64,000 nt of DNA from an uncultured Bacilli bacterium (lineage in GTDB: Bacteria; Bacillota_I; Bacilli_A; RF39; UBA660), in the NCBI GenBank assembly GCA_934148845.1, contig CAKPDH010000001.1:251963-315962 (forward strand), read 5' to 3'. The notes under the pieces are model-generated. The model was not told where the DNA came from. It saw only the letters and a list, made by a program, of their open reading frames with translations, and made no database searches. How positions within the stretch are numbered: position 1 is the first letter of the stretch; the number at the start of each line of letters is the position of its first letter. Shown here one piece after another: positions 37,147 to 60,867 of this stretch. The position numbers and the translations under genes are program-made.

Positions 37147-37147
37147 C

Positions 37148-38107: not shown

Positions 38108-39057
38108 TATTTGCCACCCAATTTCTTTATAATTTTACAAGTATTTAGCATACCTTTTGACGCAAAAAAGCAAAATATTTTAAATTTATAGCTTTTCATC
38201 TTATAAATTACATTTTTTCTATAGTTTGGATAATTTTTTTTCATATATTTAGTTATATAAATACAATTTTTTTGTCCCTCATCAAAAGATAAAAATCTTA
38301 AATATGCACTATATAATAAATGTTCTATGTTTAAATATTCTAAGACAAAAAAGTATTTATCACTTCTTAATTTAAATTGTTCATTCAAATATTTCATTAT
38401 AATAAATATATCTTCCAATTTCTTAGAATATTTTTTTTGATTCATTGATGAATTATCTCTTATAACATAATAGTATAATTCTTGATCAATAAAAGAAATT
38501 TTTTTTGCATATATACCAAGTAGTGGTATTACTGCAAGATCTTCATATATACACTTTTCTTTAAAAAATATATTATTTTCTATAAAAAGTGACTTTTTAT
38601 ATAATCTACCAACAGGACCTGAGTGAGAAATCATATAATTAACATTATCATCATCACATAATTTATTGAAATTAACAAATTTTTCTTCATGTGATGAATA
38701 CTTTTTTATTAAATTACAAATAGAAATATCCGAATCATTTTCCTTCATAGAATTATATAGTTTCTCTATCATATCATTTTTTATATAATCATCACTATCT
38801 ACAAATGTAATAAGCGACCCAGTAGATAATTTTATTCCTAAATTACGTGCTGAGCCTTGACCACTATTTTTTATAGTTCTTACAACTAATCTAGAATCAC
38901 TTATTGAATCTAATACCTTTAAAGTATTATCAGTAGATCCATCGTTTATAACAATTACTTCAATATTTTTATATGTTTGATTTAATATACTATCTATACA
39001 TTTCTTAATTCTTTTTTCTTCATTATAAGCTGGAACAATAACACTAATTTTATTCAT
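38107..39057 (-). CDS. Glycosyltransferase family 2
   Basis: ISVIVPAYNEEKRIKKCIDSILNQTY...DSDD. Confidence 0.85.
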   Translation of the reverse strand: MNKISVIVPAYNEEKRIKKCIDSILNQTYKNIEVIVINDGSTDNTLKVLDSISDSRLVVRTIKNSGQGSARNLGIKLSTGSLITFVDSDDYIKNDMIEKLYNSMKENDSDISICNLIKKYSSHEEKFVNFNKLCDDDNVNYMISHSGPVGRLYKKSLFIENNIFFKEKCIYEDLAVIPLLGIYAKKISFIDQELYYYVIRDNSSMNQKKYSKKLEDIFIIMKYLNEQFKLRSDKYFFVLEYLNIEHLLYSAYLRFLSFDEGQKNCIYITKYMKKNYPNYRKNVIYKMKSYKFKIFCFFASKGMLNTCKIIKKLGGK

Positions 39058-39060
39058 AAA

Positions 39061-40059
39061 TCACCTTTTAAAGATTTCCCTTTTAATTATTCTTAAAAAA
39101 ACAAATAATTTATATCTAGTTTTACTAGTCTTTATTATTCTTTCCTTTTTTGGCATATTTAATATTACATTTGATTTTTTCCAATTTGGAAACTCATTAT
39201 TTAAAAACTTAAACATTTTATCAATATAACTATAATTATCACTAAATGAGCCTACCTTAATTAATGAAAGTAATCCTTTTTGTATTTGTAATACTGACAT
39301 TTCTTGTACTTGGTCATATATATTATTATAATCTTCTTTATCCTTTAAATAATTTACAACATCTTCTATTATAAAATAAATATCTTTATCTTTAACACTT
39401 ATAGTACAAGTCTCACCTGAATCATTTATTCTATAATAATATAAAGCTTTATCGACTTTAGAGATTTTTTTTGCTGAAGACAACGCCTTTATAACAAAAT
39501 TTAAATCCTCATACTTTAGTTTTTCTGGAAATTTAATATTTTCTATAAGAGATTTTTTATATAATTTATTCCAAGGACAATAAGCTACGGAATTAATTAT
39601 TAAAGGTTCTTTATATATTGATTTATTATATATTTTTATATCACCGCAAATTTTTTTTTCTTTATTTACATTATTAAATTTTATATAATCACATACAGCT
39701 ATATCTGAATTATTTTTAATTATACTTTCCATTAAAGATGAATACATATCATCTAAAACATAATCATCGCTATCTAAGAAGGCTATATAATCACCAGTTG
39801 AAAGATTTATACCTTTATTTCTAGTAGCACCTATACCAATGTTTTTTTGATCAATTATTTTAAATCTTGTATCACTTCCAACGTTATTTTTGATTCTTTT
39901 TAAAGTACTATCTTTTGATCCATCATTAATTATAATAAATTCAATATTTTTATATGTTTGCCTTTTTAAAGAATTAATACATTCATCAATATATTTTTCT
40001 ACATTATATGCTGGAACTATTACCGAAATTTTATTCTCATTCATTTTATCACCTAACAA
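39061..40059 (-). CDS. Glycosyltransferase family 2
   Basis: ISVIVPAYNVEKYIDECINSLKRQTY...DSDD. Confidence 0.85.
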   Translation of the reverse strand: MLGDKMNENKISVIVPAYNVEKYIDECINSLKRQTYKNIEFIIINDGSKDSTLKRIKNNVGSDTRFKIIDQKNIGIGATRNKGINLSTGDYIAFLDSDDYVLDDMYSSLMESIIKNNSDIAVCDYIKFNNVNKEKKICGDIKIYNKSIYKEPLIINSVAYCPWNKLYKKSLIENIKFPEKLKYEDLNFVIKALSSAKKISKVDKALYYYRINDSGETCTISVKDKDIYFIIEDVVNYLKDKEDYNNIYDQVQEMSVLQIQKGLLSLIKVGSFSDNYSYIDKMFKFLNNEFPNWKKSNVILNMPKKERIIKTSKTRYKLFVFLRIIKREIFKR

Positions 40060-40993
40060 ATATTTTATATAGTTTTGGATTAATATAAACTAAAACTTTT
40101 TTTATTATACTTTTTATATTTGTACATCTAAATAGTTTATATGCTTTTATTTTTCTTAATTCTCTTAAATAAATTTTTCTATCAAATTTATTTATATCAT
40201 AATATTTTTTTATAACAGTTGTCATTAAATAATTAGCAATTATATTTCTAGTATTAGAGTCCATTTCCATATTAAGGAACTCATAATTTAATATTCCCAT
40301 CTGATATAATGTATCAAATGACTTTTTAAATACTTTACTGTACTCCAAACTTTTTGTTATACTTCCTTCTCTTTGCAAATAATTATACCCAACATAATAA
40401 ATACTAGATACTGTTTTGGCACGCGCTATAACATATGGAATTAATCCGAAATCTTCATGATATCTTGAATCACAAAAACTAAATTTATTTCTTTTATAAA
40501 ATTCTGATTTATACGCATATATTACTGCCGTTTCAAATGTTTTATGACTTAATATTAACTTACTTAATGCATCAATACCAGATAATTTATTAAATACAGG
40601 AAGTTCATTAACTACAAAGATATTTTTTTTATCATAGTATTTTTGCAATCTATAACATATTAAATCATCAAAAGTTTTATTAATCTGCTCACTTAGTTTT
40701 AATAACAAATCAGGCTCTAACCAATCGTCTGAATCAACAAATAAGATATATTTTGAAGAAGATTTTAAAACTCCATAGTTTCTAGCACTAGAAAGTCCTC
40801 CATTTTCTTTACTATAAATTTTTACTTTATCTTTATATTTTTTATTTAATATATTTAAAGTATTATCAGTTGACCCATCGTTTATAACAATTACTTCATA
40901 ATTTTTATAGCTTTGATTTAGTATACTATCAATACACTTTTCTATATATTTTTCTACATTATATGCTGGAACTATTATACTAAAATCTTTCAC
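40049..40993 (-). CDS. Glycosyltransferase family 2
   Basis: FSIIVPAYNVEKYIEKCIDSILNQSY...DSDD. Confidence 0.85.
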   Translation of the reverse strand: MKDFSIIVPAYNVEKYIEKCIDSILNQSYKNYEVIVINDGSTDNTLNILNKKYKDKVKIYSKENGGLSSARNYGVLKSSSKYILFVDSDDWLEPDLLLKLSEQINKTFDDLICYRLQKYYDKKNIFVVNELPVFNKLSGIDALSKLILSHKTFETAVIYAYKSEFYKRNKFSFCDSRYHEDFGLIPYVIARAKTVSSIYYVGYNYLQREGSITKSLEYSKVFKKSFDTLYQMGILNYEFLNMEMDSNTRNIIANYLMTTVIKKYYDINKFDRKIYLRELRKIKAYKLFRCTNIKSIIKKVLVYINPKLYKIFVR

Positions 40994-42011
40994 TTTTTAA
41001 CACAACCTTTTTTACTTTTCTAATACACTTATTTGGAAATTTAACTAACTTATTTAAATTTAAAAATAATTTAAAAATATTTTTTTTATTATTAAATAAA
41101 TTATATATTTTATACTTTAATGAAAGTGATTTCATATCTTTTAAGTAAGCATATTCTTTATCAAATTCTTTTACTTTATTATATTTTGCACTATATTCTA
41201 GTCTTATTTTAGAATATTTTATTTTTACTTTATTAATTAAATTTATTTTATTTTCTATATCCATATTATTTAACACATTTAATATTATATCTTCATATCC
41301 ATTATATTTATTAATATATTCAATATAATTTTTTTGATTATGCGAGTGACTATTACTACGCTCATAATATATATATCCAACTTTATTTATATACCCGCAT
41401 TTTTCATAATAAGATATTGGTAGCAACATCTGAAAATTTTGCCCCCATCTTGATATATATATACTCATTCCACCATTAGACTTCTTAAATGAATCAGTTC
41501 TAGCCATATAGCACCCATCACAGTAGTAAATGCCTTTATCAAATAAAAAATCATAAAATAAATTTTCTTTTTTATTATTATTATCATTCCTTTTTATTCT
41601 ATATATAGGTTTACTTAAATCTGATTCTGAGTATGCAAGTGCTTCAGTCCTAACATAGCCATATTCTAAGTTTTGCTCTAAAAAGTCCACTTTCATAGAA
41701 ATTGAATTAGGGGTTAATTTATCATCTGAATCAGGCCAAGTTAAATATTTTCCCTTAACATATTTTAATCCATTATTTAATGCCCCAGAAGCTCCAAGAT
41801 TATCCTGCTTTATATATTTAAAATTAGAAAGCTTATCATTCAATTTATCTTTATATTTTTCTACTATAGAGCTAGTATTATCAGTTGACCCATCATTCAC
41901 TAGTATTAATTCTATATTAGAATAATCTTGATCTAATATAGAAAGTAAAAATCTTTCTATATATTTTTCTCCATTATATACAGGAGATAAAATTGTTACT
42001 AATGGTTTCAT
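40980..42011 (-). CDS. Glycosyltransferase family 2
   Basis: VTILSPVYNGEKYIERFLLSILDQDY...DSDD. Confidence 0.8.
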   Translation of the reverse strand: MKPLVTILSPVYNGEKYIERFLLSILDQDYSNIELILVNDGSTDNTSSIVEKYKDKLNDKLSNFKYIKQDNLGASGALNNGLKYVKGKYLTWPDSDDKLTPNSISMKVDFLEQNLEYGYVRTEALAYSESDLSKPIYRIKRNDNNNKKENLFYDFLFDKGIYYCDGCYMARTDSFKKSNGGMSIYISRWGQNFQMLLPISYYEKCGYINKVGYIYYERSNSHSHNQKNYIEYINKYNGYEDIILNVLNNMDIENKINLINKVKIKYSKIRLEYSAKYNKVKEFDKEYAYLKDMKSLSLKYKIYNLFNNKKNIFKLFLNLNKLVKFPNKCIRKVKKVVLKSERF

Positions 42012-42015
42012 TTCA

Positions 42016-43164
42016 TCACTTCCTAATAATACATTTTATAATTTCTTTTATCTTATTTATAATTTTATCTTTCGTTTTCTTTTTATATTTATTACCTCTA
42101 AAGTCCTCTTTTAGTAAACTATTAATATTCTTATTGCGATTTAAAAGCGCTATATCATTATATTTACCATTAAAAATTCTTGGATTATATTTTCTAAAAT
42201 CAAGCAAGTTTTGTTTTTTATATATGATTTCATTTTTAATGCTATCAAATAAATCACTACCAGTTAAATTATTTATAATTACAAGAGAAACACCATTATC
42301 CTTATTATCTTTAAAAAAATCTTTATCAATTTGACCTATGCCCCAAGCATCGGAAAGTGTAATATCACCTACTCTTGGTATAGTATTAAAATCACAATCA
42401 TAACAAGATTTCATCAAAAATAGATTTTTTAAATATGCCATAAACCATTCATCATTATAATGCTTATGCTTTGATACAATTTTATCACCATTAAAATATC
42501 CAAGCGAATAATTTGTCCAAGATTTATCTTTAAGTCTAAAATTAATGTTATTTACTCTTCCATTAAATCTAGATTTTAATGAATTATCGAATATTATTTT
42601 AGATGGAACACCATGACATGCTAAATCGACTACAATTAAATTAGAATTATCTATAATTTTTCTTATTGCCGCACATTGACAAGGTGTCCCAACAAATAAT
42701 ATTTTTTTAGACTTTATATTCTTTTTTATCTCATTATATATATTTCCAGGATAGCTTTGTATATATTTGGATCCTTGCATTTTAGATAAATCCGATACAC
42801 TATCTATTAAAACATGCTTAGCAGTATTATTTTCAAAAATGACTGAAGCAACCATTCCACCATAATCTAGTATTTTTTTTGCTAAATGATAAAATATTCC
42901 ACCAGATGATGATGTAGATAAAACTTTTTTATCTTTTGAATATGCAGAATATGATTTAATTTTATCCTTAGAGTTAGAATTTGTGAAAGATATTTTAGGA
43001 CAAATTTTTATACATAATCCACAATTTATACATTTATTTTTATCTATTCTATACTGATAAAAACCTTCTTTATTTAATTCTATTTTAATAGCATTTCTAG
43101 GACAAATATTCTTGCAAGCACAACATCCAGTACAGTTAAAGTTTAAATCTTTTAAATTACTCAT
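42016..43164 (-). CDS. FrhB-like protein with 2x[4Fe-4S] ferredoxin (second copy)
   Basis: CTGCCACKNICPRNAI...CINCGLCIKICP, and a C-terminal CYDCDFN...ITLSDAWG. Confidence 0.8.
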   Translation of the reverse strand: MSNLKDLNFNCTGCCACKNICPRNAIKIELNKEGFYQYRIDKNKCINCGLCIKICPKISFTNSNSKDKIKSYSAYSKDKKVLSTSSSGGIFYHLAKKILDYGGMVASVIFENNTAKHVLIDSVSDLSKMQGSKYIQSYPGNIYNEIKKNIKSKKILFVGTPCQCAAIRKIIDNSNLIVVDLACHGVPSKIIFDNSLKSRFNGRVNNINFRLKDKSWTNYSLGYFNGDKIVSKHKHYNDEWFMAYLKNLFLMKSCYDCDFNTIPRVGDITLSDAWGIGQIDKDFFKDNKDNGVSLVIINNLTGSDLFDSIKNEIIYKKQNLLDFRKYNPRIFNGKYNDIALLNRNKNINSLLKEDFRGNKYKKKTKDKIINKIKEIIKCIIRK

Positions 43165-44674
43165 GTGTTCTCCTTACTTTGTTTAATATTACTTTAAAAT
43201 TATTTCTCATTGCATGATCAAATAAATAAAATACTGAGAATATAACTAATAAAACTATAATAAAAATTACTAACATTACTAAAAACCATTTAAAGTAATT
43301 TGTACTAAATAATAAAACTTTACTTTCTAAAGGAAACAGCACAATACTTAATAAAACAAATGATAATATAACTATAATTGGTCTTATAATTAATGACTTA
43401 TATGATGCTTTTTTAAATACCTTTTTATTTATTAAACTAGTTCTTATAAATATTCCAACCAAGCTTGCAATAAATGTTGCAATTAAAATACCATTTATTC
43501 CAATAAGCTTTAATAAAATAATTGAAAGTATAATGTTTACTACAGATTCAATTATTGGAAAAAATCTACTTTCCTTAAATAATCCATTAGCTTGAATTAC
43601 AGTATTTATATTTGTTAAAATAATGTTTGATACAATAATTGCTGCAAAAGAACAACTTGATAAATAGTTAAGAATGTAATTAGGTTTATCTATCCATAGT
43701 TTAATAAAACTTCTAGCGCCCATTACAAAGCAAAATGAAATAACAAGAGTTACTGCTGAGAAAAATGAAACATAACTTTTATAATAATCTAATGTTTTTT
43801 TATCATCCTTAGCAAATGAATAACCAAATATATTACTTATCATTTGATTATTTTTATCAAATAATTCCCTTATAAAAGTAACAATATAATTATAAGATGA
43901 ATATATACTAACATAAACAGGTCCTAGAAAACTCATTAATAAAACAGTATCTACATTATTAAATATAACATAGCCTATTTGGTGAAATATCATATCTCCT
44001 GACATCTTTTTAGCACTTTTATCTGGAGTAGCCGATTTATCTAAATATGTATATTTCTTTTTACAATATGATGTAATTACTAAAGTTTCTAATATTTTAA
44101 ACAATAAGTTTACGATAACAATTGAAATTATTGAATTAGTTAATGAAACAACAAAAATTATTAAAATATCAGTAAGTAATCTAGAAATATTATAAACAAG
44201 ACCATAAGTAAATCTTTTTTGATCTGCTGTAAGAAGTGTTGTATAAGATCTAGTTCCACTTAAATAAGGTAAAGCTACAGCAAAAACCAACATAAAAAAG
44301 CAAAATGAAATTGTAATAAACAATTTAATTTCCTTTGTATACATATAAATAACAGGTAAAAGTATAACTGCTATTGATATAAAAATTATACCTATACCTT
44401 TTAAAATAGCCTTAGAACCATTAAATAATTCAGAAATCTTTTTATAATCATTATTAGCAACCGGCCTATACATTTTATATAATATGGCAGTTGAAATACC
44501 TGCCTCAGCAAGAACAATATATGATATAATATTATTTATAAACTGATAATATCCATTCATTTCAGAACCAAGTCCATGAATTATATATTTAACTTTTAAA
44601 AGTCCAACAACAGCTATTATTAAATAAAATATAGTTTCCATTACTGAATTTTGCAATATTTTCTTTAATTTCAT
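43157..44674 (-). CDS. wzx: Polysaccharide flippase (Wzx, MOP superfamily), second copy
   Basis: 505 aa with 12-14 TM segments. Confidence 0.75.
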   Translation of the reverse strand: MKLKKILQNSVMETIFYLIIAVVGLLKVKYIIHGLGSEMNGYYQFINNIISYIVLAEAGISTAILYKMYRPVANNDYKKISELFNGSKAILKGIGIIFISIAVILLPVIYMYTKEIKLFITISFCFFMLVFAVALPYLSGTRSYTTLLTADQKRFTYGLVYNISRLLTDILIIFVVSLTNSIISIVIVNLLFKILETLVITSYCKKKYTYLDKSATPDKSAKKMSGDMIFHQIGYVIFNNVDTVLLMSFLGPVYVSIYSSYNYIVTFIRELFDKNNQMISNIFGYSFAKDDKKTLDYYKSYVSFFSAVTLVISFCFVMGARSFIKLWIDKPNYILNYLSSCSFAAIIVSNIILTNINTVIQANGLFKESRFFPIIESVVNIILSIILLKLIGINGILIATFIASLVGIFIRTSLINKKVFKKASYKSLIIRPIIVILSFVLLSIVLFPLESKVLLFSTNYFKWFLVMLVIFIIVLLVIFSVFYLFDHAMRNNFKVILNKVRRTHE

Positions 44675-44675
44675 T

Positions 44676-45905
44676 CTACTCTCCCTTTAAATGTTTACAT
44701 ATATCATCAAGTGTCGCACTAACTATTTCTTTAGATGAAGAAACACTATCTGCTATTTTACTTTCTATACTGCTATCATTTTTTATATAATTGATTCTAT
44801 CGAAAACTAAACTCTCAAATTTCTTCCAAAAATTTTTTTGCTTTGCATCTAATACTAAGTTAGGAAATTTAAGACCATCAGCAATAACTCCTTTATATTT
44901 TTTACTATATGAAATACATATCGCTGGATGTCCCATTTGAAAGGTTGAAACTGCTGCATGCATTCTACAAGTTATTGTAAATTTGCCTAATCCAAGTATA
45001 ATTCTTGCTTCAACTGGAAGAATTGGTTTATCAATTAAAATGCAATTATTTGATATAAAATTATTATATTTTTTATCTATTTTTTTGTATAAAATGTTAT
45101 CATCTATTCCGTTTTTAGTAAACACATGAGCAAGACACACAACATTATACTTTTCTTTTATTAATCTTTTGATAAGATTATAAAAAGCATCTACCATTTC
45201 TTCTGGATTTTTTGAATAATTAGATAAAAGTCCTGTACCAACTACAGTTATATAATTATTTTCTTCTAAATTATACTTACCTAATATTTTTACTTTATTT
45301 TTAAGATATTCTTTTTGCAAGTTTAAATCTAGAAATGCTAAATCCCTAGACTCAAAAGAATCAGTACCTAGTACATTTTTTAAATATTTTTTTGTTTCTA
45401 AATCTCTTGTATAAATTCTTATATCCTTAAAAGTTTTCTTTGCAAGATTAATTCTCTTTCCTGTGTATGGACCAATAGTTTGTCCAACCATAATTAAATT
45501 TGAATTTGAATTAAATATTTTTAATTCTTCAAAAACAAATTTAACCTCTAAATTATCCTTAGGAAACTTATAATACACCTCAGAAAAATCATCTCCGCCT
45601 AAAATAATAATAGCATCATAAAATAAAGAAGCCTTCTTTACATGGGATTTTCTTCTTAATTTTCTTTCCAATACTCTAATATATTTGATTTTACCTGTAA
45701 GCAAATTAAATTTTAAAACATTATCACAGTATATATTATCATTTTTTGTTGCAATTCTTAAACGTTCAACATCTTGATAAGTATCAGCTTCTATGTAAAA
45801 TTTTACATCACTAATTTTTTTAGTAATATATGTTATTAAATTTTCTGCCATCATCATACTTCCATAATTATATGTATTTGAAATATTTTTTAAAAGTATA
45901 TTCAT
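44676..45905 (-). CDS. Polysaccharide pyruvyl transferase (second copy)
   Basis: 409 aa. Family-like N-terminus MNILLKNISNTYNYGSMMMAENLI. Confidence 0.7.
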   Translation of the reverse strand: MNILLKNISNTYNYGSMMMAENLITYITKKISDVKFYIEADTYQDVERLRIATKNDNIYCDNVLKFNLLTGKIKYIRVLERKLRRKSHVKKASLFYDAIIILGGDDFSEVYYKFPKDNLEVKFVFEELKIFNSNSNLIMVGQTIGPYTGKRINLAKKTFKDIRIYTRDLETKKYLKNVLGTDSFESRDLAFLDLNLQKEYLKNKVKILGKYNLEENNYITVVGTGLLSNYSKNPEEMVDAFYNLIKRLIKEKYNVVCLAHVFTKNGIDDNILYKKIDKKYNNFISNNCILIDKPILPVEARIILGLGKFTITCRMHAAVSTFQMGHPAICISYSKKYKGVIADGLKFPNLVLDAKQKNFWKKFESLVFDRINYIKNDSSIESKIADSVSSSKEIVSATLDDICKHLKGE

Positions 45906-45922
45906 AAAATCTCCTTTTCTGT

Positions 45923-46957
45923 TTATTTTTTACTTCTATCAAATAGTATATCTGTTTTAAATACAAAAATCATTAATCCAATCATTAGTACACCATATAC
46001 AATATATCCTATATTATAGTCCACTAATAACCATATAATAGATGCTAAAGAAAATAACGCTGTAATTAAATATATAATTAATACTGTTTTTCTAACACCA
46101 CAGTTTCTTCTTAATAACTGATGGTGAAAATGACTTTTGTCTGGTGTACCTATGCTTTCACCCTTTAATTTTCTTCTTATTATCGCACATGCTGTATCAA
46201 GTATTGGAACTACTAATATACAAAGTGGAATTATAATTGAAGATGTAAGTATAGTTTTAAATCCTAAAAGAGTTATAACTGAAATTATAAAGCCTAAAAA
46301 CATAGATCCAGAATCACCCATAAATATTTTTGCTGGATTAAAATTATGTACTAAAAAACCTAATGTTGATCCAAGCATTATAAATGTAAGGACAAAAGAT
46401 AATCCTATCCTTCCTTGAAAGTAAGCAATTATTCCAATAGTAAGAAAGAAAATGGAGCTAATGCCTGCTGCAAGGCCATCAAGACCATCAATTAAATTTA
46501 AGCAATTTATGCATCCTAATATAAATAGTACAGTTATAGGATATGCAAAAATTTTAAAATCAATATATAATCCTAAAAAAGTTACATCTCTAAGTAGCAA
46601 ATTACCATATATTACTACTATTAAAGCTGAAGCTAATTGACCTATAAATTTAGGAAAAGGATTTAATGGTTTAATATCATCTATCATTCCTGTAATAATT
46701 AAAATAAAACTTCCTATTAATATTGAGTTCATAATAGCTGTATGTTCACCAAAAACCATATATCCAAGTAAGAACCCACCATATATACCTATTCCACCTA
46801 ATCTAGGCATAGGAGTTTTGTGTACTTTTCTTTCATTTGGTATATCTAGTGCTCCGACATGTGTTGCTATTTTCTTAACAAAAGGAATTGCTAAAACAAC
46901 GAACACAAAAGGAATAAATATCATTAATAAAATCGTTGTTATGTTTGTATTACTCAT
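45923..46957 (-). CDS. tagO: UDP-GlcNAc:undecaprenyl-phosphate GlcNAc-1-phosphate transferase (TagO/WecA; MraY/GT4 family)
   Basis: 11 TM segments. ...NCLNLIDGLDGLAAG... and ...FMGDSGSMFLGF... are MraY/WecA signatures. Confidence 0.85.
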   Translation of the reverse strand: MSNTNITTILLMIFIPFVFVVLAIPFVKKIATHVGALDIPNERKVHKTPMPRLGGIGIYGGFLLGYMVFGEHTAIMNSILIGSFILIITGMIDDIKPLNPFPKFIGQLASALIVVIYGNLLLRDVTFLGLYIDFKIFAYPITVLFILGCINCLNLIDGLDGLAAGISSIFFLTIGIIAYFQGRIGLSFVLTFIMLGSTLGFLVHNFNPAKIFMGDSGSMFLGFIISVITLLGFKTILTSSIIIPLCILVVPILDTACAIIRRKLKGESIGTPDKSHFHHQLLRRNCGVRKTVLIIYLITALFSLASIIWLLVDYNIGYIVYGVLMIGLMIFVFKTDILFDRSKK

Positions 46958-47667: not shown

Positions 47668-47697
47668 AAGCTTCAGCCTTTGCTGAAGTCTTTTTAA
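47668..47697. terminator. Bidirectional intrinsic terminator (gcttcagc-ctttgc-tgaagtc)
   Basis: A perfect hairpin flanked by A-runs and T-runs, between convergent genes. Confidence 0.6.
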
Positions 47698-49424
47698 TAT
47701 GATAAATCATTTGTAGATGATGCAGTAGGTGCAAAATCACTCATAGGTATAGATATTACTGGTCTATATGTACGAAAATTTTCGTCTATGGATATTGGCA
47801 CAGTAGATATATATTTTTTATCTCTTTCATCTTCATAGCTATCTTTTTGAAATGCCATAGTTGTATTATCATAAAGATATCTTTTATTATTATTATATGA
47901 ATCTAATAAATCAAAAGAGTTTGGTGCACTAAGAGTATAACGACCATTAACCTCTGAAAGGGTATAGAACCTTAAAATGTCTTTCTTCGTATCAAGTAAA
48001 GCTTGAATTTCTTCTTTGGTAGCAAGCCTAGCTTTTAGGTTCGGTGCTTGCCAAGATGCATGACTTATATCAGATGAACTTGTAGCATATCTATTAAGAA
48101 TATATGTTGTATTACCTATTGTATATATTCCATAATATCCATTTGATGAATTTTTTGCATTATATGGATCCCTAAAATTTATATTAATATTTGGTACATT
48201 CCAATCTTTTGTTTCATTATAAATAGTTTGCATAATAGAAACAGGTCCAAATAAATTACTGATGGTACTTTCTTTAGGATAACCAAATTTGGCTTTTAAA
48301 TTATTAAAATCTGAGTTTTTTATCCAATAATATATATTAGGTACTCCACCATATTCAGATTCTGACATTAGATTTATTAGATTGTTTTCTGAATCTATAC
48401 TTAAAATATAATAACGTCCAAATAAAAGTTTATGATTATTAATCTTTTTTTTATCAGGCCCAGATATGTTACAATAATATTCATCGCCTATTTCAAATAT
48501 AAGTTTATTATTTTCATCTAATTTTGGAACAGTTGCAATAATAGCCCATTCTGGGTGCTTATAATGATCTGAAAGTACCTTATTTCCTCCAGCATCTATT
48601 GTAGCAATACAAGTAGAAGTTATACTTACTTTACACTCACCTTTAAGCTTTATATCATATGAAAATCTTGAGCCACTATATTTAACTTCTACACTGTAAT
48701 CAGTAACCGGAAGATCATTATAAGTAGTGAAAGCTCCTAAACCTAGCATATTTTCGTTTATAAGAGTTGATACTTTTATACAGTATGTATTTCCATCTCT
48801 CTCTGAAAATTTATCAGGATATTTTGATACAAACTCCTTAGCAGCACTTATTATAGCTTCTTTTATACATTCATCATTATTTGTAACAACTGTTATATCT
48901 GATAAAGCATCTAATTTAACATCTTTGATTATTTTAGGTATATATTTATAAACATTTTTTGTGGAATCATAATCCGCTAGCACTATACAAGCGCTACATT
49001 TTCCTTCTTTTGTACATTTATCATAGTCTATTATTTGTTCAGTACATTCATCTACCATTTCATAGTGATAGCCACCACTATATGTTACTTTTACTATGTT
49101 TTTAGCTTTTACATTTTCATTATCATAATCTTTTAGATAACCTTTTCCCTTTAAAGTATCTACAGCTACACAATATGTATTAGTTGTTACTTTAGGATAA
49201 TTACGACTGTTATCTGAAATATATAAATCTAATGCTCTAAATATTATATTTTCATAGCTAGTATTAATAGCAAGTTCCTTATTTTTAACACTACCTGTTA
49301 TTTTGGGTAGTACTATTAACATTATTCCTATAATTAATATTATTACACTAAGCAGTTCTATTAATGTAAAACCATCTTTAGATAATGACTCTCCCCCCCC
49401 CCCGAAGCGTACGTTTGTTTTCAT
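47694..49424 (-). CDS. Large type IV prepilin-like protein (class III signal, G|FTLIELL) with a 530-aa C-terminal extracellular domain
   Basis: MKTNVRFGGGGESLSKDG|FTLIELLSVIILIIGIMLIV, with Glu at +5. A G11 homopolymer lies in codons 7-11. Confidence 0.65.
   Translation of the reverse strand: MKTNVRFGGGGESLSKDGFTLIELLSVIILIIGIMLIVLPKITGSVKNKELAINTSYENIIFRALDLYISDNSRNYPKVTTNTYCVAVDTLKGKGYLKDYDNENVKAKNIVKVTYSGGYHYEMVDECTEQIIDYDKCTKEGKCSACIVLADYDSTKNVYKYIPKIIKDVKLDALSDITVVTNNDECIKEAIISAAKEFVSKYPDKFSERDGNTYCIKVSTLINENMLGLGAFTTYNDLPVTDYSVEVKYSGSRFSYDIKLKGECKVSITSTCIATIDAGGNKVLSDHYKHPEWAIIATVPKLDENNKLIFEIGDEYYCNISGPDKKKINNHKLLFGRYYILSIDSENNLINLMSESEYGGVPNIYYWIKNSDFNNLKAKFGYPKESTISNLFGPVSIMQTIYNETKDWNVPNININFRDPYNAKNSSNGYYGIYTIGNTTYILNRYATSSSDISHASWQAPNLKARLATKEEIQALLDTKKDILRFYTLSEVNGRYTLSAPNSFDLLDSYNNNKRYLYDNTTMAFQKDSYEDERDKKYISTVPISIDENFRTYRPVISIPMSDFAPTASSTNDLSY
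49393..49403 (-). repeat. Homopolymeric G11 tract (C11 on plus) inside the 5' end of the prepilin gene; candidate phase-variation switch
   Basis: ttc ggg ggg ggg gga gag encodes F-GGGG-E. An 11-nt G/C run in a genome of about 24% GC. Confidence 0.6.
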
Positions 49425-49463
49425 ATAATTACCTACTTTCTATACTAATGATATCATATATTT

Positions 49464-51623
49464 TTATATTTTTCTAGGATTAAAATCTATATCTAGTGTT
49501 ATTTTTTTATTATTACTTAATAAATCAACTACGTCTTTTAAATTAATATATATATCTTTTGAATTTTTGTATTTAATTATTATTTGCATGTAATATTTAT
49601 TATTTATCTTAGGCATTGCATTTAAACTAGGGCCTAAAATTATTATATTTTTATTTTCTAAATATTTTTTTATTTTAATAGCTTCCTGTTCTAATTCTTT
49701 TAAATTTGTTCCTATTAATTTTATTAAGCATAAATCATAATATGGAGGATATCCTAATTTTTTTCTAATACTCATTTCTTCTTTATAAAAACTATTATAG
49801 TCATTTAGGGCTGCATATTTAATACTATAATGATCTTTATTAAAACATTGTATTATAACTTTACCATTTGTTTTAGATCTACCAGCTCTGCCTGATACTT
49901 GGCTCAAAAGAGAAAATGTTCTTTCTCCACTTCTATAATCTGGTATATTAAGTGTTGCATCCCCATTTATTACTCCAACTAAAGTAACATCCTTAAAGTC
50001 AAGTCCTTTTGATATCATCTGCGTACCAATTAATATATTGTACTTTTTGTTTTTAAAGTCATTTATTATCCTCTCATGACTTCCTTTTCTTCTCGTTGTA
50101 TCAATATCCATTCTGATAACCTTAGCCCTATCAAACTGTTTTTTTACTTCTTCTTCTAATTTTTCTGTACCAATGCCAAAATCAGTAAGATTTTTACTAT
50201 TACAATTAGGACAATTACTAGCTTTATATGTAGTATAATTGCAATAATGACAATTTAATTTATTTGAGCTTTTATGATATGTAAGTGGTATATCACAATT
50301 AGGACATTTTACTACATACCCACACTCTTTACAAGTAATAGTAGTAGAATAGCCTCTTCTATTAAGTAATAATATTACTTGTTCTAAATTATCTAATCTA
50401 TTATTAATATCATCTATTAATTCTCTTGAAAAAATTCTAAAGCCTTTTTTTATTTCTTCTTTCATATCTATTACTTTTATAACAGGCATAGATTTATTAA
50501 TTCGCTCTTTTAGCTCAAGTAATTTATATTCTCCTAAAATAGCCCTTGTATAACTATCAATTAAAGGAGTAGCACTTCCAAATATAACGGGGCAAGAATG
50601 TGTTTTAGCACGCTTAAGAGCTATATCTATTGCATTATATTTAGGGTTATTTTCTTGCTTATACGTATCTGAATGCTCTTCATCTAGTATAATTAATCCA
50701 ATATTTTTAAATGGCGCAAATATAGCACTTCTAGCACCTATTACAATAGAGACCTCTCCCCTTTGAACTTTTCTCCATTCATCATATTTTTCACCATCTG
50801 ATAAAGCACTGTGTAAAATAGCTATAGAATCCTTAAATCTAGATCTAAAAATATTTACCATTTGAGGTGTTAAACTTATTTCAGGAACAAGTACTATTAC
50901 CTCTTTTTTTTCTTCTAATACCTTTGAAATTATATTTAAATATACTTCAGTTTTACCAGATCCAGTTACTCCATGTAGTAAAAAAGGAGAAAATTTGTTT
51001 AAACAATTAATAACGCTTGATACAACTTTTTCTTGATCTTTTGTTAATACAGGCTTTATAGCATCTATATCACCATTATAATTAAGTCTATATACTTCTT
51101 TTTTTTCTTCTTTTATTACATTGTTTTTAAGTAAAGTATTTATACTTGATAAAGATATCTTAGTAAGTTCACTTTTTAAAGTAGGTTTAATTTTTAATAT
51201 ATCAATTATTTCTTTTTGACAATCGTTTTTAGGTATATATAGGTAATCTTTTAATGATAAGTATTTATCATATTTTTTATTTATATTAGTATTTTTATGC
51301 GCTTTTAGCGCTACAGGTAACATAGTTTGATATGATTGTATTAAAGAAGATAATGTTTTTTTACTTATATATTTACCAAGTTCAATCATTTCTTCTGTAA
51401 GCACTGGGTCACTATCTATTACATCTATAATATCTAATACTTTATACTCTACTTTAGATTTAGTATTTATACCTAATATAAATCCTTCTAATTTTTGTCT
51501 TCCAAAAGGAACATATACTCTTTTACCTATCTTTATTTTATCTATTAGACTATCTTTTACATTATAGGTAAATGTTTTATTTATTTTTTTAACTTTAAGT
51601 TCAACTAAAACATCTATATACAT
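49464..51623 (-). CDS. priA: Primosomal protein N' (PriA helicase)
   Basis: Walker A LLHGVTGSGKTEVY, a DEEH box, and Cys-rich zinc fingers CKECGYVVKCPNCD...CHYCNY...CPNCNS. Confidence 0.9.
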   Translation of the reverse strand: MYIDVLVELKVKKINKTFTYNVKDSLIDKIKIGKRVYVPFGRQKLEGFILGINTKSKVEYKVLDIIDVIDSDPVLTEEMIELGKYISKKTLSSLIQSYQTMLPVALKAHKNTNINKKYDKYLSLKDYLYIPKNDCQKEIIDILKIKPTLKSELTKISLSSINTLLKNNVIKEEKKEVYRLNYNGDIDAIKPVLTKDQEKVVSSVINCLNKFSPFLLHGVTGSGKTEVYLNIISKVLEEKKEVIVLVPEISLTPQMVNIFRSRFKDSIAILHSALSDGEKYDEWRKVQRGEVSIVIGARSAIFAPFKNIGLIILDEEHSDTYKQENNPKYNAIDIALKRAKTHSCPVIFGSATPLIDSYTRAILGEYKLLELKERINKSMPVIKVIDMKEEIKKGFRIFSRELIDDINNRLDNLEQVILLLNRRGYSTTITCKECGYVVKCPNCDIPLTYHKSSNKLNCHYCNYTTYKASNCPNCNSKNLTDFGIGTEKLEEEVKKQFDRAKVIRMDIDTTRRKGSHERIINDFKNKKYNILIGTQMISKGLDFKDVTLVGVINGDATLNIPDYRSGERTFSLLSQVSGRAGRSKTNGKVIIQCFNKDHYSIKYAALNDYNSFYKEEMSIRKKLGYPPYYDLCLIKLIGTNLKELEQEAIKIKKYLENKNIIILGPSLNAMPKINNKYYMQIIIKYKNSKDIYINLKDVVDLLSNNKKITLDIDFNPRKI

Positions 51624-51653: not shown

Positions 51654-52388
51654 TCAAGAGTCATGATTTAATAATTTATTTATTATTAATAATATAATAA
51701 CTATTAGTCCTGTTATAAATAATTTAAATGTAAAATTATTTATAAGCGTTATAAAAAACTTAGAAAAATAACTATTTGTATATACAAATTTATCAAATAT
51801 ATTAAATATTTTTATAACTAGATATGGACATAATAATAATATTGAGCTTGAAAGTATGCTCGTTTTTAAGAATTTTTTATCTTTATTTAATATTAATAAT
51901 ATAACACTAATAACTATTATTACAGTTATCACTGATATAGTAATAAAGAGCTTATTATTTAAATATAATTTATGAATCATATTATATTCACGAGTTGGAA
52001 ATAAATTATATGTATATATATCATTTATTTCCTTAGCGTATCTTTTATTTATTGATATATCATTTGTATATGAATCTATAATATTATAAAGATCTATATA
52101 TCTATTAACACTCTTACCATTTATAATATTTTTTATATCTGATTTTATCATATTAATTGTAAAATATTCTAAATACTTATTTTTAATTTCCTTATTTATT
52201 ACAAAATTACTTACTTCTTCTTTTATATTATTGAATGCTAAATCATAATAGTTAATTTTATTTAAATTATTTAAAATACTTTTTTTAGTAAGTGTACTTT
52301 CAAGTGATATAAATAAAGTAAAAATAGTTAAAATAATCATAAGAGTAAATGATAAAACATGACTAATACTACTTTTCATTTGTATCAC
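51654..52388 (-). CDS. Hypothetical membrane protein
   Basis: 244 aa. N-terminal TM, mid TM and C-terminal TM segments. No motifs. Confidence 0.5.
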   Translation of the reverse strand: MIQMKSSISHVLSFTLMIILTIFTLFISLESTLTKKSILNNLNKINYYDLAFNNIKEEVSNFVINKEIKNKYLEYFTINMIKSDIKNIINGKSVNRYIDLYNIIDSYTNDISINKRYAKEINDIYTYNLFPTREYNMIHKLYLNNKLFITISVITVIIVISVILLILNKDKKFLKTSILSSSILLLCPYLVIKIFNIFDKFVYTNSYFSKFFITLINNFTFKLFITGLIVIILLIINKLLNHDS

Positions 52389-53538
52389 CTAACCATTCAC
52401 TTTTAATATTTTCTAAATATACAACTATTCTTTTATTACCGTATATATCTTTATTAGGATAACAAGTATATAATATAAGATCATAATCTTTTTTTATACT
52501 ATCATAATTATCTTCTAAAACGATCTTACTTGTCTTTACTTCATATGTAAATTTGCCATAAACTGTTTCTATAACTACTTTATCCGATTTTTTTAAGGAA
52601 TGTAGTTTTTTAAATATGCCTGTATTATGAGCTGATAGTACTGTAGCATTTTCTTCACCCGGCATAGAACTAAAGCTAGCTTGCCCAATTCCATCTTTAA
52701 GTATACTAGAACTATCTCCAAAATATACATCATCACTATCATCATCTATATATAATTTGCCATATTTTTCTCCATAAGATGGATATGATATTATTTTTTC
52801 ATCTTTAGCTACTACTTCTTTTTTAGAATTACTATAATTAACATTCATAAGAGTAATTATATCAAGATACATACTTATTTTATCATTAAATATTAGCATT
52901 ATAGGTAACAATAATATTGTTATATAAAGTAAACTTGTTAAAATTATAGATTTATATTTTAAAATTTTAAGAATGATTACAGATATAAATGTAATAATTA
53001 AAGTTATTATAATATATTTAAGAATTTTATTCATACCTACATAATTAAGTTTATCTTTTGTACTAATAACATCAGATAAAACACCATTATCATAAATTTT
53101 AATCTCATTTGTACTAGTATCTATAATAACCTTTGAAGTATCTTTACTAGTATTGGAATTATCATTAGAATCACTATCTATAATTTTCTTAGAGTTAAGT
53201 ATAATATTACTTGTCTCATTATATAATGAATATAATTCATTCTTTAAGTAATTAGGTATTTTATTTTTATCCTCAACTGAGCATACACTATATTCATTAA
53301 TTCTATTAACAACATATTTCATATTATTATATATTTTATTTAAATCACTTTCACTAACATCACGCTCATTTAATAATCTAGTATAAGATGCTTTAGTACC
53401 ATTTACAAGTGCTTGAGTTTTAGATGAACAAGTTTTAATACTAGAAGCTAAGGATATGATATCTTCTTTTGTATATGCATATACATTTGGTATTATAGCA
53501 ATTAAAAACATAATCATTAAAATTCTTATATATTTCAT
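52369..53538 (-). CDS. Sortase-domain protein with an extra N-terminal secreted domain and two internal TM segments
   Basis: C-terminal catalytic domain has VLSAHNTG (His), LILYTCYP (the TLxTC Cys) and NKRIVVY (Arg). The N-terminal 170 aa follow a signal peptide. Confidence 0.55.
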   Translation of the reverse strand: MKYIRILMIMFLIAIIPNVYAYTKEDIISLASSIKTCSSKTQALVNGTKASYTRLLNERDVSESDLNKIYNNMKYVVNRINEYSVCSVEDKNKIPNYLKNELYSLYNETSNIILNSKKIIDSDSNDNSNTSKDTSKVIIDTSTNEIKIYDNGVLSDVISTKDKLNYVGMNKILKYIIITLIITFISVIILKILKYKSIILTSLLYITILLLPIMLIFNDKISMYLDIITLMNVNYSNSKKEVVAKDEKIISYPSYGEKYGKLYIDDDSDDVYFGDSSSILKDGIGQASFSSMPGEENATVLSAHNTGIFKKLHSLKKSDKVVIETVYGKFTYEVKTSKIVLEDNYDSIKKDYDLILYTCYPNKDIYGNKRIVVYLENIKSEWLGDTNEK

Positions 53539-54278
53539 TTTATCTTCTCCCTAGCAAATAGTTTATTTGTTTTAATTATTTCATATGGTTCTACTTTTTT
53601 ATTTGAAATTATTTTATTAAAATTTTCATATACTATATCATTATACATATCATAATCTACCATATGTCTTAAAATACTTAGTCCTTTATTTATATCTAAA
53701 ACATGGTTATGTGTATCTGTACCAATGACATGTACCATATGCTTTTTTATTAATAATAATGCATTTTTTCTAACTCTTTTTCCATACTTATCTATAAGAG
53801 AAGTAATATTCATTTGAAATAGGCAACCCATATCTATTAGTTTTATAAAATCTTCTATTTTTAAATATCTATATCTTTCAGGGTGCGCTATTATAGGAGT
53901 TATACCTTTATCTTTAAGATTAAATATTATATCATACATATAATTTGACCTCTCATTTAAAGGAAACTCCATAAGTAGATACTTAGTATTATTTATTGTA
54001 GATATAAATTTTTTATCTATATATGCTAAAATATCATTATCTATAAAAGTTTCATTACCTAAATATAATTTAATATTTGTATTTTTTTGTAATTTTTCTA
54101 ATAATTGTTTTTTTTCTTTATTACTACTATTATAATTTGTTCCTATTATATAATGTGGAGTTAAGACTATATTTTTAATTCCTAACTTCTCCATTTCCTT
54201 TAATAATTTTACACTTTCCTCATATGATTTTGATCCATCATCAATACCATATAAAATATGAGTATGAATATCATTCAT
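53535..54278 (-). CDS. cpsB: Capsular polysaccharide tyrosine-protein phosphatase (PHP family, CpsB/YwqE)
   Basis: MNDIHTHILYGIDDGS...HPERY. Confidence 0.85.
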   Translation of the reverse strand: MNDIHTHILYGIDDGSKSYEESVKLLKEMEKLGIKNIVLTPHYIIGTNYNSSNKEKKQLLEKLQKNTNIKLYLGNETFIDNDILAYIDKKFISTINNTKYLLMEFPLNERSNYMYDIIFNLKDKGITPIIAHPERYRYLKIEDFIKLIDMGCLFQMNITSLIDKYGKRVRKNALLLIKKHMVHVIGTDTHNHVLDINKGLSILRHMVDYDMYNDIVYENFNKIISNKKVEPYEIIKTNKLFAREKIK

Positions 54279-54943
54279 TATTTATAATACTCATTATAAT
54301 AGTAACTACTGTGTTTTCTTTTAATTTGATTTACAACAATACCTGCTAGCTTAATACCAGTTACTTCTAAAGATTTTTTAGTTTGCATTAAAGACTCTAT
54401 TGGTGTTTTCTTATATGCACTTACAATAATTGCCTCATCGCAAAGTGAAGTAAGTATTAAAGCATCTGGAAGTCCTTGTATTGGTGGACAATCTAGTATA
54501 ATTAAGTCATACTCTTTCTTTAATATTTCAAGTAATTCTTTATTTTTTGCAGAACCAAGTATTTCACTTGGATTTGGTGGTACTATACCTGACTTTAATA
54601 CATATAAATTATCTACTTCAGTTTTATTTATATATTTTTTATAATTTTTTATATCATCAAGTAATAAATTAGATAATCCTGTTTCTTTATCTAAATCAAA
54701 TATTTTAGCTTGAGTTCCCCTTCTTAAATCACAGTCTATTATAAGGGTTTTCATATTAACCATAGCAAATGCAGCTGCTAGGTTAGATGATATAAAACTT
54801 TTCCCCTCACCTGGCATAGAACTAGTTACCATAATTGTTTTAACATTATCATCAATAAAAGTAAATTGTAAATTAGTTCTAAGAGTTCTAATAGCTTCAC
54901 TTGTAGCCCCTTTAGGTTTAGATAGTAATACTATATTATTCAT
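54278..54943 (-). CDS. cpsD: BY-kinase (CpsD/YwqD tyrosine-protein kinase)
   Basis: Walker A SSMPGEGKS, Walker A' DCDLRRG, and a tyrosine-rich C-terminal tail SSYYYNEYY. Confidence 0.85.
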   Translation of the reverse strand: MNNIVLLSKPKGATSEAIRTLRTNLQFTFIDDNVKTIMVTSSMPGEGKSFISSNLAAAFAMVNMKTLIIDCDLRRGTQAKIFDLDKETGLSNLLLDDIKNYKKYINKTEVDNLYVLKSGIVPPNPSEILGSAKNKELLEILKKEYDLIILDCPPIQGLPDALILTSLCDEAIIVSAYKKTPIESLMQTKKSLEVTGIKLAGIVVNQIKRKHSSYYYNEYYK

Positions 54944-55610
54944 GTTTACCTCCTACTGTTGGAACTTCACCTATTACAGGTAATTCTAATTTTCTTTCAA
55001 CTTCTTCTATACTTTTAATTGTTGTATCAAAGTAAAATAGAATAAATACTACACCAAAACTTAATATAATACCTATAAAAAATGATATTAATAAAGTTTT
55101 AAGCATATTGATATTATAAGGACTTTCTTCTTCTACCGCTTCATCTACAATACCAATATTTTGAATATTATATAATTTTACTACCTCACTATTAAATACA
55201 TTAGCAGTTTCATTTGCAACATCCATTGCGATTTTACTATCTCTATCAGATACACTTATCTTAATTATTTCAGTATCATTTATACTTGATACACTTATCT
55301 CTTTACTTAAAGATTCAAAATTATAATCTATATTTAAGTTATTAATAACTTTGTTAATAACTTTTCTACTTTTAATTATTTCTCTATATGTATCAACTAA
55401 ATTTTTATTTAAAGTAATATCATTGCTAGTTATTTGATTAACATCACTTCCCTTAGTTAATAATATTGTAGTATAACTTTTATACATTGGTACTTTAAAA
55501 AATCTAAAGTAAACAAATCCTGTTAAAATACACACAATAGTAATTAATATAATATATAATTTTTTTGATAAAAAATAATCAAACATTTCTTTTAAATTTA
55601 TTTCTTCCAT
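54936..55610 (-). CDS. cpsC: Chain-length determinant / BY-kinase modulator (Wzz, CpsC/YwqC)
   Basis: N-terminal and C-terminal TM segments flank an extracellular domain. The C-terminus ends in ...PVIGEVPTVG. Confidence 0.8.
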   Translation of the reverse strand: MEEINLKEMFDYFLSKKLYIILITIVCILTGFVYFRFFKVPMYKSYTTILLTKGSDVNQITSNDITLNKNLVDTYREIIKSRKVINKVINNLNIDYNFESLSKEISVSSINDTEIIKISVSDRDSKIAMDVANETANVFNSEVVKLYNIQNIGIVDEAVEEESPYNINMLKTLLISFFIGIILSFGVVFILFYFDTTIKSIEEVERKLELPVIGEVPTVGGKHE

Positions 55611-57902: not shown

Positions 57903-58916
57903 TTATACTGATGGAATAGCGCATGTATCTTTTTTATATGAAATAGAAGTACCGGGTGGAAATGCATTTTCTCCAATAGTAACATCGCCCTCACATGCAT
58001 ATATTACTACTTCCTTAAGATTAGAATTATTATAAAACGCATAATCACCTATTGTTAAAGTAGATGGAGTAACAACCATTGCTAATAAAGAAGCATCTAC
58101 CTTTTTATTTTTAGAATTAAATACACTTAGATTTGTATCATCGTCTCTTAGACTAGTATCACTACTAACATAATTTCCTATATATAATTCTTTTATATTA
58201 TTGTTACTAAAAGCATATGAGCCTATTGTCTTAACAGAACTTGGAACATACAGTCTAGTTAAATTATTGTCTTCAAAAGCATTTGACTCAATAGTTGTAA
58301 TATAATAATCAAGTGTTACTGACTTTAAACCTTTACCTTTAAATGTTGAGCTTCCTATTTTAGAAATAGATCCGTCCCCTACATATATATTTTTATTATC
58401 ACAATTATAAGCTATATAACTTGAACTATTTTTAGTATAACAACTATCTTTTGGAACAACTTTACATCCATTTACATTTTCAACATTAAAATTATTTCTA
58501 CTTGAATCTATTGATATCGAATAATTGCTATATTGAAGATCATATATATTATCTACCTCACCATTTTTTATAACAATTTCCCCGCAAGATGGTCTATCAT
58601 TTTGAATACCTATATTTAAAGACCCACCATTAATTGAAAGTCCTCTTTTACAGCTTAAATCAGAATTTATTCCATTTAAACAGAAATTTCCATCACTATT
58701 TATAAAATATATTCCATCACGAATATAATAGCCTTTTACTTTTAAGTTAATTATATCAGCATCTAATACATTTGCATACATTCTAGCACTGCTAATAGCG
58801 CTATTTTTTTTAGAATCACTTATTACATTTAATACTATTGGAGTAACAATAGTAGCAACTATTCCAAGAAGTAATATAACTGCAAGCAATTCTATAAGTG
58901 TAAATCCCTTTTTCAT
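57903..58916 (-). CDS. Type IV prepilin-like protein fused to BspA-type leucine-rich repeats
   Basis: True start is MKKG|FTLIELLAVILLLGIV, with the RBS ggtaggtga 4 nt upstream. The longer track ORF would begin upstream of the promoter. The C-terminus has ...IESNAFEDNNLTRLYVPSSVKTIGSYAFSNNNIKELYIGN... LRR units. Confidence 0.6.
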   Translation of the reverse strand: MKKGFTLIELLAVILLLGIVATIVTPIVLNVISDSKKNSAISSARMYANVLDADIINLKVKGYYIRDGIYFINSDGNFCLNGINSDLSCKRGLSINGGSLNIGIQNDRPSCGEIVIKNGEVDNIYDLQYSNYSISIDSSRNNFNVENVNGCKVVPKDSCYTKNSSSYIAYNCDNKNIYVGDGSISKIGSSTFKGKGLKSVTLDYYITTIESNAFEDNNLTRLYVPSSVKTIGSYAFSNNNIKELYIGNYVSSDTSLRDDDTNLSVFNSKNKKVDASLLAMVVTPSTLTIGDYAFYNNSNLKEVVIYACEGDVTIGENAFPPGTSISYKKDTCAIPSV

Positions 58917-58922
58917 ATATTC

Positions 58923-58960
58923 ACCTACCATTAATATAATTATAAAAAAAAAGACATATA
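58923..58960 (-). promoter_or_regulatory. Sigma-A promoter of pilin::LRR gene 1 (TTGACA, 17-nt spacer, TATAAT) with a T9 tract in the spacer
   Basis: Minus strand reads ttgacaatatatgtctttttttttataattatattaatggtaggtgaatatATG. Confidence 0.6.
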
Positions 58961-58963
58961 TTG

Positions 58964-59305
58964 TCAATTCTTTATTAATTGTTTATTTTTAATATTATTT
59001 ACCCTATTATATTTTTTTATTATATCTTTACTCAATAAATAATCAATATAAGAATCAATAGAATAAAAGTTAATTTCTTTAAATATATAGGTAAAATACT
59101 TACTATATATATTCAAATATTTATTAATATCTAATTTAACTATATTTAGTTCCATATTTGTAAGTCCCAAATATAAACCTAATATCTTTTTATCATTTAT
59201 AGACAATATTTCACCTTCTATACTTATCTCTAAATTCTTAATTAAATCATATACATACATACCTCTATATATAGCACTTTTAACTTCAATCAATTCTTCC
59301 TTCAT
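58964..59305 (-). CDS. Hypothetical protein between the two pilin::LRR genes
   Basis: 113 aa with no motif. Coding status uncertain. Confidence 0.4.
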   Translation of the reverse strand: MKEELIEVKSAIYRGMYVYDLIKNLEISIEGEILSINDKKILGLYLGLTNMELNIVKLDINKYLNIYSKYFTYIFKEINFYSIDSYIDYLLSKDIIKKYNRVNNIKNKQLIKN

Positions 59306-60861: not shown

Positions 60862-60867
60862 ATAATC

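Follow-up and report, generated by a model that had tools for sequence, protein, structure and literature searches.

A candidate slipped-strand on/off switch in the leader of a modular type IV prepilin-like gene from an uncultured gut Bacilli bacterium

The 64,000-nucleotide (nt) stretch analysed here, referred to as the window, comes from an uncultured Bacilli bacterium (contig CAKPDH010000001.1, positions 251,963 to 315,962) and carries, at 47694..49424 on the minus strand, a gene for a modular type IV prepilin-like protein of 576 amino acids (aa) whose leader codons contain a run of eleven guanines. We read this G11 tract as a hypermutable homopolymer that acts as a slipped-strand on/off switch for the gene, and we put the probability of that reading at about three in four. 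It builds on features that can be observed directly, namely the tract and its improbability, the effect of its length on the reading frame, a series of G9, G10 and G11 alleles, and "off" alleles that have not decayed. From these we infer that slippage would occur at high frequency, would be reversible within the population, and would govern the surface display of the large C-terminal module of the protein. The window contig corresponds to scaffold_26 of the ENA assembly ERZ28615896 (L003, sample SAMEA4765811), a human gut metagenome.

The G11 tract and the prepilin leader

The tract appears as C11 on the plus strand at window positions 49393-49403 and as G11 on the coding (minus) strand, where it occupies nt 22-32 of the open reading frame (ORF), that is, codons 8-11 of the leader (GGG GGG GGG GGa). 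An earlier note on this DNA, made from the letters, had pointed to an 11-nt G run at these positions in the leader of a 576-aa prepilin, and both the sequence and the ORF bear this out. It assigned the run to codons 7-11 (FGGGGE); the glycines are indeed there, but FGGGGE spans codons 7-12 (F7, E12), so that the end given was off by one. The guanine-plus-cytosine (GC) content of the window is 23.7%, and the tract is its sole G or C run of at least 6, the runners-up being two C5 runs. Base composition predicts about 5e-5 runs of at least 11 per window, in agreement with the note's claim that such a run is extremely improbable at about 24% GC. Across 53 ORFs (18,934 codons), GGG is the rarest glycine codon (60 of 843, 7%), and adjacent GGG codons occur only at the tract. 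Directly 3' of the tract lies AGAG (49389..49392, minus strand), found in all poly-G alleles described below and not in the AGGGGG alleles. The window holds a single copy of the gene, since a conserved 27-mer has just one match in it.

The length of the tract sets the frame. When the tract was edited in silico, G8, G11 and G14 yielded the full-length protein, and all remaining lengths from 7 to 15 yielded a stop after 14-21 codons (14-20 for G9 and G10); the latter include the plus-one and minus-one variants, whose truncation the earlier note had proposed to check by translation. Under the proposed mechanism, replication slippage would add or remove one G. At G11 (also at G8 and G14), the 18-residue leader, the G/FTLIELL cleavage site (the slash marks the cleavage position) and the 558-residue mature protein would all be translated, and at other lengths translation would end early, with no pilin made. 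Because the tract sits in a leader that is presumably cut off by a prepilin peptidase, in-frame length changes should spare the mature protein. We considered a start codon 3' of the tract and dismissed it, since none of ATG, GTG and TTG occurs in frame from the tract to Gly-1; relatives also require a start before Gly-1.

The N-terminus of the ORF reads MKTNVRFGGGGESLSKDG/FTLIELL or, spelled out around the tract, MKTNVRF-GGGG-ESLSKDG/FTLIELLSVIILIIGIMLIVLP. Codons 1-18 (MKTNVRFGGGGESLSKDG; 49371..49424, minus strand) are read as a class III signal peptide with the Gly-1 of the cleavage position as the last residue, and the sequence across this position, SKDG18/F19-T-L-I-E23-LLSVIILIIGIMLIVLP, has the Gly-1, Phe+1 and Glu+5 of such leaders followed by a hydrophobic helix; a helix is predicted at residues 21-38. 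In the alignment of homologs, which includes homologs that pass PF07963, residues G18, T20, L21, I22, E23, L24 and L25 are invariant. Two homologs (P0006 and P0007) exceed the PF07963 cut-off with 26.9 and 27.0 bits, and the prepilin N-terminus is supported because these homologs pass this family and align with the invariant residues of the motif. Alignments to the GspG, ComGC and ComGE models of NCBIfam begin at residue 17/18 (E ~3e-5), all of them scoring far under the full-length cut-offs, and the family profile matches solved mature pilins from residue 1, namely 8pfb_G (S. sanguinis PilE1, E = 8.7e-5), 5wda_A (GspG) and 6xxd_A (PilA). More distant relatives have leaders of 4-5 residues of the MKKG type; as far as the compared sequences tell, the extended leader is lineage-specific.

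The pilin-like part extends to about residue 267 and is followed by a 310-aa C-terminal module. An AlphaFold2 model built from an 8-sequence alignment has a mean predicted local distance difference test (pLDDT) score of 43.9; residues 20-267 are modelled with moderate confidence as an N-terminal helix plus two alpha/beta repeats, and the model fails for residues 268-576 (pLDDT 20-35). Searching this model against the PDB with Foldseek returned nothing at E <= 0.001, and the PCNA-like top matches, none of which reached that value, were dismissed as meaningless. Neither the complete protein nor its stretch 265-576 matched any family in Pfam scans, and these found no PilY1/PilC C-terminal beta-propeller domain. 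For the C-terminal module, an exhaustive HMMER search gave just 21 weak matches among 1.84 billion representatives. Paralogs retain the N-terminal part and swap the C-terminal part. The length of 576 aa and the N-terminal alpha/beta part fit the architecture of a modular type IV pilin, which the protein probably is, and its C-terminal module is probably an adhesin.

Tract alleles among strains and the alternatives to a switch

A protein search returned nine relatives only (clusters 1-3, with nine member sequences each, all of them listed), and the DNA of the encoding contigs was then read. At the site next to priA, where the gene lies in the window, the tract takes three lengths. TTC-G11-AGAG-TCA, in frame, is found in the window contig and in a contig from a second sample (L064, SAMEA4765870). 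TTC-G10-AGAG-TCA, out of frame, is carried by NODE_15 of the Hadza assembly E-H_F_1_1963 (L008, coverage 153x), and TTC-G9-AGAG-TCA, also out of frame, by the Hadza assembly I-L_M_10_2632 (L009, 2.7x) and by ERZ27287441 (L010), whose contig begins 8 nt before the ATG, so that priA is not on it. The comparison of orthologous loci that the earlier note had called for thus yields differing tract lengths (G9, G10, G11) between flanks that are otherwise identical. The G9, G10 and G11 strains differ by 5-11 substitutions over 3.3 kb (99.55-99.8% identity), with the tract as the sole indel, and no other character at the locus changes as fast as tract length among these sequences. A 348-kb NCBI contig likewise has the identical 576-aa protein on record (protein record only). 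In 135 kb of related loci, G or C runs of at least 6 were found only at the tract position.

The out-of-frame alleles are otherwise intact. Several relatives' protein records begin at an internal Met (MLIVLPK...), as gene callers do when the leader is out of frame; the 771-aa records P0020 and P0021 correspond to residues 32-802 of the in-frame P0019 and P0002, and at the nucleotide level the off and on gene bodies show 0-4 differences over 2,360 nt, all within the repeat shared with a paralog (see below). Such undecayed frame-shifted genes fit reversible switching rather than decay. Together with the allele series, they lend support, at the level of differences between strains, to the slipped-strand on/off reading that the earlier note had proposed. 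A Shine-Dalgarno (SD)-like AGGA lies at 49318-49322 (minus strand), 4 nt before the ATG of Met35, the internal start that gene callers choose in the frame-shifted alleles, and a leaderless product may be made from off alleles by way of this AGGA and the internal Met. Gene callers and the annotation of metagenome-assembled genomes mis-start or drop genes of this kind, as the 771-aa and 542-aa ORF calls from the internal Met illustrate.

The alternative that survives best, though we judge it unlikely, is a mutational hot spot without switch function, in which the run expanded by chance within one sub-lineage; the G9 and G10 forms would then be recent, effectively permanent knock-outs (incipient pseudogenes) of a dispensable paralog. 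The tract is missing from other strains of the species: at the same place, strains that are ~97.3-97.7% identical read TTC AGG GGG TCA, encoding RG (L005), or TTT AGA AGA AAA CTA, encoding RRKL (L006, L007 and L068). Because these strains have no homopolymer and encode other residues, the long G run is a recent gain in one sub-lineage. The earlier note had named as the case against a switch orthologs that encode the same residues without a homopolymer; the ~97% strains do lack the run, but they encode RG or RRKL instead of those residues. A hot spot without function would also agree with the second paralog, which has a fixed leader and is always in frame, with the confinement of all three off alleles to one chromosomal arrangement, and with an ordinary frameshift elsewhere in the species that splits the type A gene, the type to which the 576-aa protein belongs (P0016 + P0010), so that loss is tolerated. 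However, it does not readily account for three lengths among near-identical strains, for off bodies that are without further damage across 2.3 kb, or for the in-frame allele, which has a net gain of 9 nt over AGGGGG with the frame preserved. As far as is known, G runs of at least 9 are intrinsically reversible hot spots in every system studied, which also speaks against permanent knock-outs.

Further changes are recorded in related strains. The split of the type A gene falls after ...NNLKA (P0016, 411 aa; P0010, 224 aa), a site inferred from the proteins only, and the leader of the split gene reads FRKS, i.e., its G5 run is interrupted. In L006, priA is split into 646 + 50 aa. A ~90%-identical type A copy on a 1,989-nt contig (ERZ26858496, 3.8x; L067 1-300) has the leader before ...LSKDG replaced by unrelated DNA, which ends in a G7 run. 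Ahead of this DNA lies the 3' end of an ORF with a match to DUF4368, known from the C-terminus of large serine recombinases. In this copy, a mobile element may have integrated at or near the position of the G run.

That errors of sequencing or assembly produced the length differences, with a single true length or a poly-G read artefact behind them, is considerably less likely again. Homopolymers of at least 9 are error-prone, two-colour Illumina chemistry yields spurious G runs, and one of the G9 contigs has a coverage of 2.7x. Against this, the run is flanked on both sides by unique sequence and the frame is maintained; G11 occurs in two assemblies of different samples, and the GGGGE leader is recorded on a third contig; the contig with G10 has 153x coverage, and G9 was obtained independently in two assemblies produced by different assemblers. 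The lack of any further G or C run of at least 6 in the 64 kb of the window and the 135 kb of related sequence speaks against a general artefact. Action at the level of RNA or protein, with polymerase slippage or ribosomal frameshifting restoring the frame or with the Gly4 spacer itself under selection, would mean that DNA length gives no clean on/off switch, and is very improbable: long homopolymers can cause transcriptional slippage and the SD-like AGGA precedes Met35, but orthologs encode RG or RRKL rather than GGGGE and thus have no Gly spacer in common, the Gly codon in the run is the rarest one, and a product started at Met35 would be without the leader, Phe1 and Glu5 and not processable as a pilin.

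Several points weigh against a slipped-strand switch and limit the confidence that we place in it. All tract lengths are consensus calls from short-read metagenome assemblies, including the G9 contig of such low coverage. Among the few assemblies, G11 is found with one chromosomal arrangement only and G9 and G10 with the other, and given this association there may have been as few as two independent changes in length. The lack of the tract in other strains of the species counts here as well. On the side of the protein, the 576-aa sequence scores 12.4 bits with TIGR02532 (cut-off 16.3) and 10.6 bits with PF07963 (cut-off 21.2), and the 64-kb window contains no prepilin peptidase or pilus ATPase. 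It does encode a ComEA-like protein (SLBB + HHH_3; 33364-34065, minus strand), which suggests that the genome has a competence (DNA-uptake) apparatus and so, elsewhere, a prepilin peptidase. Finally, a complete MutS (domains I-V) is encoded at 60909-63443 (minus strand), 11 kb from the tract; mismatch repair is therefore probably present and may damp slippage.

A leader pattern with a variable gap had no match when the DNA of GTDB representative genomes and JGI metagenomes was scanned for it, and a shorter leader pattern found one JGI contig, which carries the no-run allele. Among the matches listed, a profile scan of representative genomes gave only distant pilins (28-49% identity), mostly from metagenome-assembled genomes labelled "uncultured Bacilli", and the closest genome among these matches has ~74% nucleotide identity in alaS, from which we conclude that the species is absent among these matches.

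The inverted paralog and the 91-kb block

Each genome has two paralogs, type A of 573 or 576 aa and type B of 802 aa (B-like variants in other strains have 697-828 aa), with a common N-terminal part and different C-terminal modules. On the window contig, the type B gene lies outside the window (L069 3001-5409); the 5' ends of the two genes are 91,215 nt apart and the genes are convergent. The same two-gene layout is found on scaffold_47 and on the Hadza NODE_15, giving three contigs in all. Dockerin- and cadherin-like genes precede the second site, whose leader is always AGGGGG.

Within the prepilin gene of the window, a 358-nt segment (49031..49388, minus strand) is 100% identical to the type B paralog and ends in sharp divergence; the same holds within each genome. 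A further 31 nt (49414..49444, minus strand) are shared with the paralog on sequence comparison, comprising 20 nt upstream with an SD-like TAGG, the ATG and the first codons. Strain-specific single-nucleotide polymorphisms (SNPs) in the 358-nt segment usually occur in both copies of one genome, which points to gene conversion or repeated recombination, and the segment is a probable substrate for homologous recombination, with inversion and gene conversion as outcomes.

All four junction types between sites and gene bodies are seen. Type A stands at the priA site and type B at the cadherin (Cad) site (PriA-A with Cad-B) in the window contig and scaffold_47; the opposite arrangement, PriA-B with Cad-A, occurs in NODE_15, Hadza I-L_M_10 and ERZ27287441. 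Downstream genes move together with the gene body. The simplest account is that homologous recombination within the 5' segment common to both genes inverted the 91-kb block. We regard this as probable, short of proof, since a repeat of 358 nt can be wrongly resolved by short-read assemblers. In ERZ27287441, the repeat arms differ at 5 SNPs, so that the linkages of G9 with B and of G5 with A do not depend on how the repeat was resolved, if both contigs belong to one strain. Next to either repeat arm, no recombinase gene, site-specific or other, is annotated.

Such an inversion would exchange which C-terminal module stands behind the poly-G-gated priA site. We can therefore imagine a combinatorial system of surface variation with two layers, in which a poly-G-gated priA site and an always-in-frame Cad site would be combined with a 91-kb inversion that exchanges modules A (310 aa) and B (540 aa); we put this forward tentatively and as the less likely outcome. 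If it were true, a clone could display A only, B only, or both, and a gut commensal would be using a very large chromosomal inversion in a programmed way, in addition to slipped-strand switching. If the coupled inversion turns out to be real and to occur often, the locus would offer a tractable case of two mutational mechanisms that jointly vary the display of an adhesin.

Known systems and the surrounding genes

Slipped-strand phase variation is a textbook mechanism for a few pathogens (Neisseria, Haemophilus, Campylobacter, Helicobacter). To our knowledge, few reports of it exist for uncultured gut commensals of the class Bacilli or for the type IV pilins of monoderm bacteria. The mechanism itself is well known; what lends this case interest is the uncultured gut commensal as host, the site in a prepilin leader, and the possible coupling to a large inversion. 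The G9/G10/G11 series in otherwise identical genes was obtained from public metagenomes alone, and it suggests that such commensals, too, gamble on displaying a large pilus-borne module in the human gut.

The AT-rich genomes of Campylobacter jejuni and Helicobacter pylori, in which G or C runs of at least 8 mark phase-variable genes for surface structures, offer one parallel, as the G run described here likewise stands out in an AT-rich genome. Those species have dozens of tracts and no MutS/MutL-type mismatch repair, whereas here there is one tract in the ~200 kb sampled, with MutS nearby.

The closest mechanistic counterpart is pilC1 and pilC2 of Neisseria, whose poly-G tract in the signal-peptide codons gives phase-variable expression by frameshift (PMC13017665). 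As in N. gonorrhoeae and N. meningitidis, the gene studied here is pilus-associated, has poly-G in its signal-peptide codons and is one of two paralogs per genome. In contrast, PilC/PilY1 does not belong to the pilins and its signal peptide is of the Sec type, where the present protein has a class III prepilin leader; no sequence relation was found (0 Pfam families), the host is a low-GC uncultured gut bacterium of the class Bacilli, and the long tract occurs in just one of the two paralogs. From the sequence comparison, the mechanism resembles pilC switching, and the protein is not a member of the PilC/PilY1 family.

PilB and PilC of the monoderm Streptococcus sanguinis are described as modular type IV pilins in which a pilin module is joined to a large C-terminal functional module (PMC8179133, PMC9934059). 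The protein described here probably shares this fusion of an N-terminal pilin module to a large C-terminal module; unlike in S. sanguinis, the C-terminal modules match no family, and the leader has 15-18 aa instead of MKKG. We know of no poly-G control of phase variation for the S. sanguinis pilins.

For the inverted paralogs, the nearest likeness is to the sap genes of Campylobacter fetus and the Q/I pilin of Moraxella, in which recombination in a conserved 5' coding segment inverts DNA and changes the body behind the expression site; the inversion of sapA homologs in C. fetus was reportedly described by Dworkin and Blaser in 1996-97. The likeness extends to inverted paralogs with an identical 5' segment and variable 3' parts and to both orientations being observed, here in short-read assemblies across the repeat. 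Unlike in those systems, the segment between the paralogs measures ~91 kb, there is no adjacent recombinase gene, and each site has its own ATG and different upstream DNA, so that both genes can be on. The single-promoter feature of the C. fetus sap type probably fails here, because each site has this separate ATG and upstream DNA.

The spacer between priA and the prepilin gene is 39 nt long and contains a promoter-like site, TAGAAA-17-TATCAT with TG (49448..49476, minus strand), which is a consensus match only, and the count of promoter-like sites in the region is not above shuffled expectation. At the other end, a bidirectional terminator-like hairpin (47670..47689) lies between the stop codon of the prepilin gene and a convergent 193-aa ORF. 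Judged from these signals, the prepilin gene looks monocistronic.

Two more prepilin-type genes of the window, at 57903-58967 and 59383-60912 (both minus strand), are fused to BspA-type leucine-rich repeat (LRR) modules, and their presence indicates that the genome carries a repertoire of modular pilins. Both have the short leader MKKG/FTLIEL, after an upstream TTG start that is probably mis-called, and a 113-aa ORF without family match lies between them.

The prepilin gene and priA are embedded in a region for polysaccharide synthesis (34808-46957 and 52369-55610, minus strand). One side has Wzz/CpsD/CpsB-like genes and a sortase; the other has genes for a WecA-like transferase, a pyruvyl transferase, a flippase-like protein, an FrhB-like Fe-S protein, five GT2 glycosyltransferases and a Wzy_C/Alg14 fusion. 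In the opposite chromosomal arrangement, this polysaccharide cluster would sit 91 kb from its Wzz/CpsD/CpsB partners.

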